64,000 bases of DNA from Cetorhinus maximus (Eukaryota). The stretch covers positions 23,746,001 to 23,810,000 of the forward strand of contig NC_135906.1 of the NCBI RefSeq assembly GCF_964194155.1, written 5' to 3'. The translations under genes and the position numbers were made by a program. A model generated the notes under the pieces. It ran no database searches. It saw only the letters and a program-made list of their open reading frames with translations, and had not been told where the DNA came from. Positions 28,672 to 61,632 of the stretch are shown here, one piece after another; the first letter of the stretch is position 1, and every line of letters starts with the position of its first letter.

Positions 28672-28900
28672 GAATAAAAACAGAAAATGCTGGAAAAACT
28701 CAGCAGATCTGATAGCAGCTGAGGAGAGAGAAACAGAGTTAACATTTCGAGTCTGTTATGACTCTTCTTCAGAGCTGAGTCATAAGGACTCGAAATGTTA
28801 ACTCTGCTTCTCTCTCCATAGATGCTGCCGGACCCGAGTTTTTCCAGCATTTTTCTGTTTTTATTTCAGATTTTCAGCATCCGCAGTATTTTGTTTTTAT
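28672..28900. mobile_element. Palindromic PLE-terminus-derived short repeat in GET3 intron 4
   Basis: Arm 28672-28776 mirrored by 28777-28900. Confidence 0.85.
28737..28776 (-). ncRNA. Minimal hammerhead-ribozyme-like motif in a palindromic PLE-derived repeat (GET3 intron 4, sense to GET3)
   Basis: Minus strand reads AGCT-CTGAAGA-A-GAGTC-ATAACA-GACTC-GAAATGT-T-AACT: canonical CUGANGA and GAAA with a perfect 5-bp helix II; helix I has one mismatch and ACGU has decayed to AUGU. Confidence 0.55.
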
Positions 28901-51007: not shown

Positions 51008-51210
51008 GATAAAAGCAAAATGCTGGAAATCTGAAACAAAAAACAAAAATTGCTGGAAAAGGTCTGACAGCATCTGTGGAGAGAAAGACAGAGTTAACGT
51101 TTCGAGTCCGTATGACTTCTTCAGAGCTAAAGAGACATAAAAATGTGGTGAAATATAGTGTTTGGTTGTGGGGGGTGGGGGGGGAATGTGGAAGTTGGAT
51201 AGAAGGCAAG
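51008..51210 (-). mobile_element. PLE 3'-terminal fragment, with an inverted partner fragment at ~51423-51472
   Basis: Same terminal repeat followed by a G-rich segment resembling 56130-56210. Confidence 0.75.
51092..51128 (-). ncRNA. Degenerate hammerhead-like motif in a PLE-derived repeat
   Basis: Minus strand AGCT-CTGAAGA-AGTC-ATACG-GACTC-GAAACGT-T-AACT; a 2-nt loss removes the closing pair of helix II. Confidence 0.45.
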
Positions 51211-51714
51211 CCACACGAGGGCGCAGCTCCAGAATTAAAAATTGGAATGACTGAATCTTTTGGAATAACACGCACCACAGTCTCAAATGGAATATACATG
51301 GAAAAAAAATACTTAAGCAGCTCGCTTATAAAGACAAGGTGATTACAGGAGTGATGCTGAGTGGAGGAGAAACAGATTAGTTAAATGGAATTCTGCTGGC
51401 TTTGGTGTCAACTGGTTAAAACTCCACCGATGCTGCCAGACCTGCTGAGTTTTTCCAGGTAATTCTGTTTTTTGGTTAAAATGGATACTGGGACAGATTG
51501 TCGTGTGCTAAAGCGCCCGTTCTGAACCATTAAGAGCTGGTGCAAATCTCGCCAGAATTATGATTGCCAACTCAGTATAATTACAGATAGTTGCAGGTGC
51601 AAGAAGGCAGCTTAAAATGAAAGTGGAACATTATATACAAGGAAAATTTAAAGGGACCTTAAAGGGAAGTAGAAGAGGGACAAAGGTCTTGGTATGTTAT
51701 CGCAGTTGTTGTTC

Positions 51715-54984: not shown

Positions 54985-55986
54985 CTCTCGTCAGTGTTCG
55001 AAGGAGGTCTTGTGATACAGTGGGTAAAGTGGGTACAGCGTCCCTGCCTCTGACCCAGAAGCTCTTGGTTTGAATCCCACTCCAGGACTTGACAGCCAAG
55101 GAAGGTACGTTCATAATGAGGCCAAACGGGTATCAACTTTTTTGTAAATCCTTCCAACAAACTTATGGCAGGCGGTAAGAGCGGGAGAGATTCCTGGTCA
55201 GCCATGCTTGATGCAAGCTATAGCCCCTGGTGTCAGGCTGATGACCTGTTCCAGGAACAAACTAGCCATAAAAACGGACATGAGCATGTGCTTTGTCTGC
55301 CTCATGAAAGGAGAGCTCCAAGTCTAAACCAGTGTGCACTGCTGGACTGTCTGCACATGGATATGTCTGTGATAATGATTCCATTCTGTGCTTAAATAAC
55401 ACACCAAAAGTGGCTATGTACCACTAAGGTGAGGTGGGAGTACAGTCATTCCTGGTGCAATCATACCCCTGTCTTGAGTCAGCTTCAAGAGATCCTTTTA
55501 TCCCTCTTCCAAACAGAAATCAAGTCCAACTAATGCTGAAGTGCGACTGTTCTGAGATTACCTGAAACCTAACCAGCAGCTCTGAGAAATCTTAACGCTC
55601 AACATTCGAGCCTTTTGAGTGCAAATGGTATCGCCTGATAATAATCCACAATTTAATATCTGGAATGGGCAGTTGTCTTATGAGGAAAGGCTGGGCAGGC
55701 TAGGTTTATATCCACTGGAGTTGGGAAGAGTAAGAGGTGACTTGAATGAAACATATAAGATCCTGAGGGGTCTTGACAGGGTGGATGTGGAGAGGATGTT
55801 TCCTCTTGTGGGAGAATCTAGAACTAGGGGGTCACTGCTTAAAAATAAGGGGTCGCTCATTTATGACAGAGATGAGGAAAGATTTTTTTCCTCTCGGAGG
55901 GTTGAGTGAGTTTGGAATTCTCTTCCTCAAAAGGTGGTTGAAGCAGAGACTTTGATTTTTGTTAAGGCAGGAGTAGATAGATTCTT

Positions 55987-57078
55987 ACAAAAAGCCAAAA
56001 GCTACTGCGGATGCTGGAAATCCAAAACAAAAACAGAATTACCTGGAAAAACTCAGCAGGTCTGGCAGCATCGGCGGAGAAGAAATCAATTAACGTTTCG
56101 AGCCTTCATGGCCCTTCGGCAGAACTGGAGCATAGTTACAAGAAGGGAGAAATATAAATTGGTTTAAGGTGGGTGGGCGGGGGGGTGGGGGGGGGGCGGA
56201 GAGACACATTGAGGGTGTGGTGATTGTGGAGATGAGCAGATAATCAAAAGATGTCACAGACAAAAGGGTCAAAGAGGTGTTGAAGGTGGTGGTATTTGTC
56301 TGAGAAAAGTGCTAATTAAGAATGGAAGACAGGATATTCAAAGTACAGCTCTAGTGGGGGTGGGGTGGAAAGACTAAAGGTTTTAGTTTTAGATTTAAAA
56401 ATAATGGAAATAGGTGGGGAAAGAAGAATCTATATAAATTATTGAAAAAAAAAAGCCGGGGGGGGGAAAGAAACGGGGTGGGGATGGGGGGAGGGGGAGT
56501 TTAAGATCTAAAGTTGTTGAATTCAATATTCAGCCCGGAGGGCTGTAAAGTGCCTAGTCGGAAGATGAGGTGCTGTTCCTCCAGTTTGCGTTGGGCTTCA
56601 CTGGAACAATGCAGCAAGCCAAGGACAGACATGTTGGCAAGAGAACAGGGTGGAGTGTTAAAATGGCAAGCGACAGGGAGGTTTGGGTCTTTCTTGCGGA
56701 CAGACTGCAGGTGTTCCGCAAAACGGTCGCCCAGTTTGCGTTTGGTCTCTCCAATGTAGAGGAGACCGCATTGGGAGCAACGAATACAGTAGACTAAGTT
56801 AGGGGAAATGCAAGTGAAATGCTGCTTCACTTGAAAGGAGTGTTTGGGCCCTTGGACGGTGAGGAGAGAGGAAGTGAAGGGGCAGGTGTTGCATCTTCTG
56901 CGTGGGCATGGGGAGGTGCCATAAGTGGGGGTTGAGGAGTAGGGGGTGATGGAGGAGTGGACCAGGGTGTCCCGGAGGGAACGATCCCTACGGAATGCCG
57001 TCAGGGGGGGTGAAGGGAAGATGTGTTTGGTGGTGGCATCATGCTGGAGTTGGCGGAAATGGCGGAGGATGATCCTTT
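55987..57078 (-). mobile_element. 5'-truncated Penelope-like retroelement with GIY-YIG endonuclease frame and 3' terminal repeat
   Basis: ORF 56501-57094 contains CxxxRCxTC, 'VYCIRCSQCGLLYIGET', 'RFAEH', 'HF' and 'GLN' typical of PLE endonucleases; flanked by the direct repeat GATAGATTCTT at 55976-55986 and 57079-57089. Confidence 0.92.
56088..56126 (-). ncRNA. Minimal type-I hammerhead-ribozyme-like motif in the PLE terminus (variant core)
   Basis: Minus strand reads AGTT-CTGCCGA-A-GGGCC-ATGAA-GGCTC-GAAACGT-T-AATT: helix I, CUGANGA-like box (A6->C), helix II, GAAA, palindromic ACGU in place of helix III. Confidence 0.5.
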
Positions 57079-59621
57079 GATAGATTCTTGACAAGCAAGG
57101 AGGTGAAAGGTTATCGGGGGTAGGCAGGGATGTGGAGCTGACGTTAAAATTAGATCAGCCACGATCTTTTTGAATGGTAGAGGAGGCTCGAAGGGCCGAA
57201 TGGCCTACTCCTGCTCCTATTTATTATGTTCCTTAAAACAGGAGGAGCTTAGATGAATGTATTTCGTACCGTACAATTTGAACCCAAAGAGGTTTCATTT
57301 GCTCACATTCCTGCCCAGGCTCCATAAGAACAGGAGGTCATTTAGCCCCTCAAGCCTGTTCTGCCATTCAACGAGATCGTGATCTGTGACTTAACTCCAT
57401 CTACCCACTCACCTTAGCCCCATATCCTTTAATACCTTTGGTAAACAAACATCCATCAATCTCAGTTTTAAAACTAACAGTTGATCTTGCGTCAATTGCT
57501 GTTTGCAGAAGACAGTTCCGAGTTTCTACCACTGTGCGTGTGTAGAAGTGTTCCCTAATTTCACTCCTGAAAAGTCTGGTTCCAATTTTTAGACAATGCT
57601 CTCTAGTCCTAGAAACCCCGGGCAAGTTGGAAACATAAGGCTGCCCTAGGATACGGAACCAGAGAGACCAGGAAGGTTCTGGCTTCAACCCCGGTCTGTA
57701 CAGGGTCGATGGATCTCAGTTGAGATTAACATCGTTGACCTTCCTGAATTCTGCTGGAGTCTCCAGGAATGAAGGGTTAGTCTCCTGAAAGCTGCTGCAG
57801 CCCAGGGAAGGGAAAAAAAAATCATGTGGACATTGAAGTGTTTTTCGTTTTCTATGAACTTTTTGTTATTAGTTGTAAAAATATTGGAATATGGAGGGAA
57901 GAAAGTGTTGGATGATTCTTGAGTGGCTGTTAAGGATTCTAGGAGGTCTTGCAGCATAGTGAGTAATGTCCCTGCCTCTGAGCCACGGGTCCAGGTTCAA
58001 GCCCCACCTCCAGGATTTGATGACCAAGGAAGGTGCATTCATAATGCGGCCAAACAGGTCGAGTATCAACCTGCAAATCCTTCCAACACACGCCAAAGGC
58101 AGGCGGTAAGAGCGGGAGAGACTCCTGGTCAGCCAGGATGGAACGTTGGAGCCTCTACCATCACTGTCCGCGGTTCCAGACTACAACATGCATGCAAAAG
58201 TGTACGTTACCACAGCAACTCCGGCTCCCTGGGTGAACTGTAACACACCCTCACCATCAAATACTCTATTTGCTTTCCACTTGGCATGGGAAGGCAGAGC
58301 CCTGTGAGGATGGACAGAGTGGCAAACAAAGGCAGGAGGCATGTGATGATACCTCCTGGCTTGGCAACCCTTGGTTGCATTAGGGGTTGGATCACAATCC
58401 AATGATCCTCTGCTTGACAGTGCACATCAGTAAAGGGTAGGATAGGTCCCAGCCCATTGTCAAATAACCTGCCTGCACTCACAGTCCAGCCTGGTGCCTG
58501 AAGGCAGATAACTTGAGTATGACAAGGGAGAGCAGCAATCACCCTCGGAGAGCCCAGCGGTGGGGAAGCAGACTCACAGATGGCACCAAGTTACAAAGGC
58601 ACTAGATTCAACAGGCCCGAGGAAGGTCTGCATTTCAACACTTCAAATGGTAAACAAAACAATCCTTCTATTACTTATAAATATTTAAAGGGAAAAAAAA
58701 ACTTCAGCGCTGTGGGGAAAATGAACTAAATGAGCAGGTCTACCAACAAGCCAGTACAGACATAAGGGGCCAAATGGCCTCCATTTGCACTGTAACATTT
58801 GATTATTCTAATTGGCTATTTTTCAGCGTTTTGGTTCATTAAATCGCACAAAATTTCAGAAAATCTGTTATTTGAGCACTTTGGTTACAAGCTTTCTGCG
58901 GTAAAGGATAAAGTGCTGTGAGACTGATTGAATCAAAGTCTTTCTGGCCAATCCCTCTCTAAGGCTGCGGGAACTCGTTCCCTTATTCCATACGTCATTG
59001 CTAGCTGACAGGGGGACTTCACCAGCTCTCTAGCGTTCCGGCAGTCCGCTGCATGGAAACCCCTCCCAGGGTAGCCTCTGAAATGTACCCGCCCTTCACC
59101 ACCCACCTCCCCTCCCCACAACAGCGCAGGGAAACGCACGAGCTCCACACTGCACTTCGCTTCCAGCTGGCCAGGATCAGCGTTCCAGTGGTGAAGCTGA
59201 TGGGTGCAAAATGTCGACACCTGACATCCACCACAGGACCCAGCAGGCTCTGCAAATCAGTGGTTAAAAAGTAAACACGAACCAAGGCCATCTTGCTTAT
59301 TCGAAGGCAATTAGAGGTGGGCAACTCCCACATCCCGTGAACGAATAAAATAGAAACCCATCAGTGGCGGACTCAGAATAGGTTGTGCTAGAAGTTCAGC
59401 TGCCCCTGGTGCAGCACCGAGCTGGCTGATCTCAGCAGGGGGCTAGGGTTGCAGCCAGCCGGTGCAATCCCCCTCAGCACCACGGGTCAGAGGAAGGATA
59501 GTCTGAATTCCTGCCAGTCCAGCGACAGCTGAACAAGTGATGCTCAGCCGCGGAACAGAGAGAGCACGTGCACAGGAACACTCACCAGCTCGAATCTCCT
59601 CCTCCAAGTCGCACAGCTTCC

Positions 59622-60679: not shown

Positions 60680-60851
60680 TCAGTTGGTCTCGTAGGATGA
60701 GAGCAAAGCCGCGTCTACGGGTTCCATACATGAAGGGCACGTGAAGGATCTCATGAGCCACTCATCAATGCATTCCATGTGGTATATGTGCATACATGGC
60801 AGAAACCGGATAGGATCGCCATACACAAAGTCCATCATACAGATCACACAC
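60680..60851 (-). CDS. RNF11: RNF11-family E3 ligase, final coding exon with RING-H2 (ECVICMMDFVYGDPIRFLPCMHIYHMECIDEWLMRSFTCPSCMEPVDAALLSSYETN*)
   Basis: Acceptor CCTTCTAG|; C3H2C3 RING-H2 pattern and RNF11 C-terminus SSYETN; TGA at 60682-60680; phase matches exon 2. Confidence 0.95.
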
Positions 60852-60944
60852 CTAGAAGGGGAAACAAAGCATAGATTAAATGGTACAATTTTATAAAGGG
60901 TGGGGGGAGGGGGGAGGGAATGAAGGAGCAGGGAGATCTTGGGG

Positions 60945-61632
60945 ATATACCCACATACACAAATTTTTGAAGGTGGCAGAAATGGCAAGAAGGTTGGTTT
61001 AAAGTTAAAAGCACAGAGGATACAAATGCTGAACTTCATAATAAATACAGACACAGAGTAGAAAGTTATGGTGAACCTTTATAAATCTCTGGTTAGGCCC
61101 TCAGCTGGAGTAGTGTGTCCAATTCACGTTAGGAAGAAGTGTCAAGACCTTGGAGGGTGCAGAGGAGATTTACTAGAATTGTACCAGGGATGGGGGAACT
61201 TCAGTTATGTGGAGAAACTGGGACTGTTCTTCTCAGAGCAGAGAAGGTTAAGGGGAGATTTAACTCAAGGTGTTCATAATTCTCAGGGGTCTTGATAGTT
61301 TCCCCCGGTCTACTCTGTTTCCAGTTGCAGGAGGGTCAGTAACCAGAAGACATAGTTTCAAGATAATTGGGGGAAAAATATAGCAGGAGTGGGGGAGAAA
61401 TGAGAATTGTTTTAACCATTGTGTTGTCTTAATGTGGAAGGCGCTGCCTGAAAGAGCGGTGGAAACAGATTCAATAGTAACTTTCAAAAGGGAATTGGAT
61501 AAATACTTGAAGGGGAAAAATTTGCAGGGCCACAGGGAAAGAAATTGAGCGGGTATGACGAGTTATACAACTCTTTTAAAGAGCGGGCAAAGGAACGATG
61601 AGCCACACAGTCTCCTTCTGTATGATTCTATG
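60945..61632 (+). mobile_element. CR1-like LINE fragment (RNF11-like intron 2)
   Basis: 'NLYKSLVRP', 'SYVEKLGLFFSEQRRLRGDL'. Confidence 0.8.

Follow-up and report, generated by a model that had tools for sequence, protein, structure and literature searches.

Penelope-like retroelements carry minimal hammerhead ribozymes, which Cervera and De la Pena described in 2014 (PMC4209133) as type I motifs without a helix III and with a palindromic 15.2-16.2 (C-G) pair. They possess an extra base at the A9/G10.1 junction, a G10.1-C11.1 pair and an NUH cleavage site, and they lie in the terminal repeats and are dispersed in huge copy numbers. Among the rows of its supplementary alignment considered here, every one with a readable core has A6, the consensus is CUGANGAH, and the only core variant is U3-A8; one of its supplement files contains no shark term. 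The metazoan minimal hammerheads are described there as weak even as dimers and slow even with A6. Two further systems come close to the motif presented here. The hammerhead of phage Bcep176 has a natural C6 (Perreault 2011, PMC3088659; Naghdi 2020, PMC7151607), and the Poseidon element PAc of Anolis (Frangieh 2024, PMC11167929) is a vertebrate Penelope-like element with a hammerhead upstream of two reverse-transcription starts that define its tails. In the accessible text of the latter report, the Anolis hammerhead cleaves only with the protein of the element. The role of the Penelope hammerheads is described as open, and processing, circularisation, a mere passenger or a brake are considered (PMC8557442, PMC11167929).

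In the window, by which we mean the whole 64,000-nucleotide stretch of Cetorhinus maximus DNA analysed here, we found a motif that shares with these minimal hammerheads the type I layout without helix III, the palindromic 15.2-16.2 bases, the extra base, the G10.1-C11.1 pair, the NUH site, the place in a terminal repeat and the huge dispersed copy number. It differs in that U or C stands in place of A6. Reading from 56127 to 56087 on the minus strand, one meets the 5' strand of helix I, the core CUGCCGA, the extra A, helix II, GAAACGU, U17 and the 3' strand of helix I. The features of the locus are the following.

57079-57089, minus strand: target-site duplication, 5' copy, 11 bp, last 2 bases common to the element
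56501-57080, minus strand: C-terminal part of the ORF with CX4CxxC linker and GIY-YIG endonuclease, 5'-truncated at 57080
56131-56500, minus strand: 3' untranslated region of the element
56087-56127, minus strand: minimal type-I hammerhead motif, A6C variant, with palindromic ACGU in place of helix III
56123-56127, minus strand: helix I 5' strand, CAGUU
56116-56122, minus strand: core box C3-A9, CUGCCGA, with the variant C6 at 56119
56115, minus strand: extra A at the A9/G10.1 junction, typical of Penelope minimal hammerheads (PMC4209133)
56100-56114, minus strand: helix II, GGGCC (56114-56110) and GGCUC (56104-56100), with the 5-nt loop AUGAA
56092-56099, minus strand: G12-A13-A14-A15.1-C-G-U16.1-U17 (GAAACGU 56099-56093, U17 56092)
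56087-56091, minus strand: helix I 3' strand, AAUUG; AACUG in most sisters
55987-56091, minus strand: U-rich 3' segment of the pseudo-LTR, leading on to the ORF start in tandem copies
55976-55986, minus strand: target-site duplication, 3' copy, 11 bp

Re-reading of the sequence bore out the minus-strand letters given for 56088-56126 in the original prediction. Helix I comprises five pairs (one of them G.U), one more than had been drawn. The C3-G8 pair, U4, G5, A9, G12-A13-A14, A15.1-U16.1 and the NUH site are all present; G56114-C56100 forms the G10.1-C11.1 pair, A56115 is the unpaired base between 9 and 10.1, and ACGU is palindromic at 15.2-16.2. The extra A, which had been suspected of being a variant or decay, is no variant but a conserved feature of the metazoan Penelope hammerheads (PMC4209133). 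Position 6, A in the CUGANGA box, is C at 56119, and because A6 is lacking we file the motif as a variant. Hammerhead numbering would place the scissile bond at 56092/56091.

The sister repeats with GAGUC/GACUC that had been cited for comparison are indeed found in the window at 28733-28779 and 51088-51131, both on the minus strand, the latter with a 2-nt deletion. Besides the motif itself, a loose scan of the window gave two, both with the canonical CUGAAGA (51098-51124 and 28743-28772), which lie within these spans. A model built from the sister copies recovers both canonical motifs and several decayed pieces; it includes the window copy, so that the score of this copy itself is circular. 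The Rfam covariance models gave no hammerhead match for the window motif, a negative that is uninformative because six sister copies with a canonical core were missed as well. The folding energy of the window copy (-10.1 kcal/mol, z -0.72) is not significant alone; three sisters gave z values of -1.93, -0.48 and -1.24. Co-folding of two copies gave no clean ACGU helix-III dimer, which weighs neither way. The stop of the GIY-YIG frame precedes the motif by about 375 nt, in line with the downstream position that had been proposed, and the frame matches PF01541 with E 1.3e-5, above the curated cut-off. The original prediction is supported in part: its identification of a minimal hammerhead of type I, placed in the terminal repeat of a Penelope-like element, holds.

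The element is Penelope-like and of the Neptune type, very abundant and recently active. Its assignment comes from the linker sequence, which reads CPRRRCNTC in the window frame and fits the CX2-5CxxC between reverse transcriptase and endonuclease that marks Neptune-type elements (PMC8557442); given this linker, a "Poseidon-like" label was dropped. The window copy is a 5'-truncated insertion of 1.1 kb (57080-55987, minus strand), 94-96% identical to longer copies over about 1,050-1,100 nt. Among 17 regions chosen for paired motifs, one (L127), which belongs to the youngest subfamily, contains an intact frame of 924 codons, a single ORF with reverse transcriptase (RVT_1, E 5e-7) and C-terminal GIY-YIG (E 4.5e-4, just under the cut-off), and its inverted arms are 100% (2,678 nt) and 99.96% (2,611 nt) identical. 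Two others have frames of 694 (L126) and 920 codons (L130), the latter being a read-through of a junction. Same-strand tandem motifs stand 1,984 and 1,735 nt apart (L123 and L125). The motif belongs to the pseudo-LTR, because in L123 the ORF start follows about 150 nt past it.

Partial tandems, inverted 5'-truncated copies and a tail were all seen in the element family. The ends of 83 distinct C6 copies after the predicted scissile bond fall into two clusters, 35 at +55-74 and 45 at +100-124, with one at +80 and two that run on; the window copy ends at +105 and hence within the distal cluster. These clusters are likely start sites of reverse transcription, and the pattern agrees with the pair of starts described for Anolis PAc (PMC11167929). 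The host repeat into which the window copy is inserted (55976-55986) was hit independently, at an identical site, by another C6 copy (L031), hinting at a target hot spot. Additionally, 66 nt of the terminus of this element, lacking the hammerhead and inverted relative to the motif, lie at 51407-51472 (plus strand).

Another observation concerns the tandem copy L123 (minus strand), counted from the predicted cut: between about +50 and +145 a donor-like site CAG/GTAATT is found (about 56042-56037 in the window), and the tandem copies have a pyrimidine tract and AG just ahead of the ATG of the ORF. Site and tract suggest that the 5'-UTR holds an intron some 95 nt long, as it does in Penelope. In the oldest A6 family, however, the GT is missing. 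The 22 public runs consisted of contigs that were guessed to be RNA or of unknown kind, one small-share metatranscriptome excepted; the four that were aligned, which carry no information on ends, strand or level, contained no joint matching this candidate intron.

The original prediction had left open whether CUGCCGA is a lineage variant or decay of this one copy. The genome-wide counts decide for the former. The exact C6C7 core pattern with a 15-nt helix II occurs 14,921 times, compared with 0 for the reversed-pattern control, so that the motif is not a chance match. Motifs of the same geometry with any A6 core number 14,923 (reversed control 0) and those without A6 make up 54,600 of the 69,523 exact motifs (reversed control 2); the patterns demand two intact CpGs and one helix length, the older A6 families are therefore undercounted, and the ratio is no census. 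In the youngest helix-II context we counted 7,086 C6, 3 A6 and 2 G6 motifs, U6 being left out of this count. The helix II of the family with a non-C base at position 6 gave 12,188 matches, and the first 100 listed were all CUGUUGA. C6 is fixed in the youngest subfamily. Decay of the window copy is thus ruled out by the counts and by this fixation.

We gathered 159 distinct copies, 52 of them with a linked ORF end, to follow the history of position 6. In a tree from the ORF end only, the A6 and old U6 rows are basal (with a midpoint root, and bootstrap values that are not fully settled), and all C6 rows group with young U6 rows in a branch with 100/99 support. Topology tests on 30 of the 52 rows, with groups named after the first tree had been seen and just 5 A6 rows, rejected U6 as one clade (p-AU 7.7e-5); A6 and C6 as single sides were not rejected (p-AU 0.36 and 0.38). 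Over the ORF end, pairs of copies are on average 0.015 apart in C6C7, 0.066 in U6 and 0.05-0.08 in the A6 groups; the 32 C6C7 copies thus differ by 1.5% on average. Position 6 has likely changed twice within one lineage, from A to U to C; we infer this order because A6 is taken as ancestral from the alignment in PMC4209133 and because of the placement in the tree. The order of the subfamilies is partly assumed, and some of them consist of 6-8 copies. Coding constraint on the motif was rejected, as the short ATG-led frame across the motif is not present in the older subfamilies.

Is the fold itself maintained? The covariation alignment held 91 copies (74 distinct), two of them wrong-strand rows that give two spurious C-G cells. 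Helix II is paired in 95.9% of its cells and helix I, for which the support is weaker, in 70.6%. One pair of helix II is U-A in 60, C-G in 9 and U.G in 3 of the 74 distinct rows. That helix II keeps its pairs while varying, as had been proposed from the comparison with the sister repeats, held true; the covariation comes down to a single two-sided change (U-A to C-G) plus a one-sided one (A-U to G.U), both inherited by many copies. The covariation score of 0.168, compared with 0.144 in shuffled alignments, exceeds all slid controls and 500 of 500 shuffles, and it is inflated by the relatedness of the copies. Pairs with a two-sided change are not in excess (5 against 4.1 in the shuffles, reached in 168 of 500).

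Events were also counted between the subfamily majorities, starting from the first U6 subfamily. After the loss of A6, 3 of 31 fold-constrained positions changed, all of them keeping the pair, against 8 of 11 free positions (Fisher p 1.8e-4); the endpoint comparison gave 3 of 31 against 6 of 11 (p 0.005), and the ten core bases 0 of 10 against 5 of 7 free unpaired bases (p 0.003). The constrained and free classes were drawn after the subfamilies had been seen, and the patterns by which the intermediate subfamilies were retrieved require the core. The changed pairs are A-U to G.U and U-A to C-G; for the latter, 3 of 158 copies show the intermediate U.G. C3, U4, G5, G8, A9, G12, A13, A14, A15.1-U16.1 and the NUH site were unchanged over five subfamily steps, and the loop bases moved. 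The downstream flank is also fairly conserved, with about 6 differences in 68 nt between the oldest U6 and the youngest C6 subfamily. Altogether this is moderate evidence that the hammerhead fold is still under selection.

We give an evenly balanced probability to the reading that the motif is an attenuated, still-selected minimal hammerhead of an autonomous, recently mobile Penelope-like retroelement in which position 6 became fixed as C. The C6 motif likely folds as a hammerhead and would cut slowly after U17 (56092), probably helped by a second copy or by the protein of the element, so that cutting may happen occasionally, in tandem transcripts or on this protein. Cleavage would be throttled and not abolished; a throttled ribozyme is in keeping with A6 having been lost and likewise with G8, G12 and the NUH site having been retained. 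That copies begin 55-124 nt past the scissile bond, on its downstream side, offers a likely reason for such throttling, because fast cutting in the 3' repeat would cost the element by severing the template from the priming region unless the ends are re-ligated. Every copy with an intact motif and upstream sequence would have stemmed from RNA that had escaped cutting, or had been re-ligated, at its 3' motif.

The natural A6C hammerhead of Bcep176 cleaves at less than 0.1 per min (PMC3088659), with 0.004-0.05 per min reported in 1-3 mM Mg2+ and about 0.3 in Mn2+ (PMC7151607), and in another hammerhead, a fast one that cuts at 0.3 per min in 0.3 mM Mg2+, A6C left a rate of 3.6e-6 per min (PMC7151607). 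In a full mutational scan, mutants of the CUGA region showed low activity with the exception of a C3-G8 swap (PMC9901934). A close rival, possible though we do not think it probable, is that the motif no longer cuts and that its hammerhead-shaped fold persists as a structural signal with position 6 now free, be it for binding or positioning of the reverse transcriptase-endonuclease near the start of reverse transcription or as a translation or promoter element. Position 6 has indeed changed twice like a free position, the families without A6 dominate the exact motifs and include the youngest, and the motif stands close, at 55-124 nt, to the ends of the copies. In Anolis, insertion in vitro did not depend on cleavage, and uncut RNA served as the substrate (PMC11167929).

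The copy junctions point in the same direction. Genome-wide they held no clear footprint of cleavage: starts at the predicted cut are rare, 104 copies in all, compared with 24 and 44 at two control positions to which tighter filters were applied. Of 30 such junction loci examined, 23 were tagged as inversion junctions and 2 more were recognised as such by eye, 4 were genomic flank and 1 was a double mutant; microhomology accounts for many of the inversion junctions. A plain hairpin signal, however, would not need the catalytic G8 and G12, the rest of the core and the NUH site, all of which stayed unchanged, and N17 alternates just between the cleavable U (104 of 158 copies) and C (54). Separately, the 5' strand of helix I, 0-8 nt ahead of C3, seemed to be where many copies start (5 of 30 C6, 9 of 30 U6 and 16 of 30 A6; L031-L120), often as hairpin inversions centred there, the A6 count being perhaps inflated by missing reference sequences. 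Such starts may reflect a stall of the reverse transcriptase or a short non-autonomous form.

We consider it unlikely that the ribozyme died at A6U and was then carried along by a decaying master gene, with the remainder yet to erode. At silent sites the lineage has moved away from its oldest U6 subfamily by only about 16% (8 of 51, judged from 2 copies), and against this silent-site rate of the ORF the ten untouched core bases are not significant (p 0.18). The single two-sided change could also have been reached by two transitions via the tolerated U.G. Neutral erosion sits badly, however, with the lack of any pair-breaking change at the 31 constrained positions when 8 of the 11 free ones changed, and with the number of helix I pairs, which went from 5 to 4 to 6 through the subfamilies, two pairs being regained and the six pairs found in the C6C7 subfamilies. 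Finally, that C6 forms a manganese-gated switch for the RNA processing of the element is very improbable: A6C prefers Mn2+ over Mg2+ more than 10,000-fold in one hammerhead (PMC7151607), but the route went via U6, for which we found no such Mn2+ data in the literature, the authors of that study themselves doubt the biological relevance, and our analysis gave no link of the element to manganese.

As a variant derived from the minimal hammerheads, the motif would work like one at best. Minimal hammerheads of Penelope elements, their extra A and the A6C change have each been described before. The shark motif has the substitution in common with Bcep176; the latter is a single phage motif, whereas the vertebrate retroelement carries it fixed in at least 14,921 copies, C6 having likely been reached through U6 on a minimal scaffold without helix III. 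With PAc it shares the vertebrate Penelope-like host and the hammerhead upstream of two clusters of ends; unlike in PAc, the ORF begins about 150 nt after the cut site and not in helix II, the linker is of the Neptune type, and the activity is putative. Full-text literature searches gave no match for A6U or A6C fixed across a dominant vertebrate Penelope lineage, with the proviso that Lunse et al. 2017 may list A6 changes, and nothing of this kind appears in the accessible text of PMC6765202 and PMC6155905 or in the main text of bioRxiv 2026.07.22.740005.

A stronger version, in which the ribozyme was tuned down stepwise from A6 to U6 to C6 in a lineage that outnumbers its canonical-core ancestors and keeps a protein- or ion-gated cut, strikes us as rather doubtful. 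If it were true, tens of thousands of ribozymes that CUGANGA-based searches do not see would depart from a core base held to be invariant. Should the variant turn out to be dead, what is learned would shrink to the ribozyme being dispensable, as already suggested by the Naiad elements, which thrive without hammerheads (PMC8557442). The genome holds a dated natural series of near-identical A6, U6 and C6 elements, those with non-canonical cores being the youngest and, among exact matches, the commonest; this series could show whether cutting matters to a successful element. Moreover, most motifs of this kind in a genome can escape a search that demands CUGANGA.

Other features were noted in the window. 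A match to the HDV-like CPEB3 model at 58010-58084 (plus strand) scores 26.7 bits, below the gathering score of 35; by eye P2, P3, P4 and the C-A-A-A joiner are present and P1 is imperfect. It has a sister at 55080-55131 (plus strand) and belongs to an abundant repeat with 5,495 candidates, and 7 of 14 sister loci (L169-L182) also match the CPEB3 model at 24.8-31.8 bits. The segment just upstream of the match resembles what we take to be the head of a tRNA-derived SINE. On the minus strand, a frame at 60680-61078 ends in the RING-H2-like CVICMMDF...CMHIYHMECIDEWL...CPSC and is presumably the last exon of a host E3-ligase gene.
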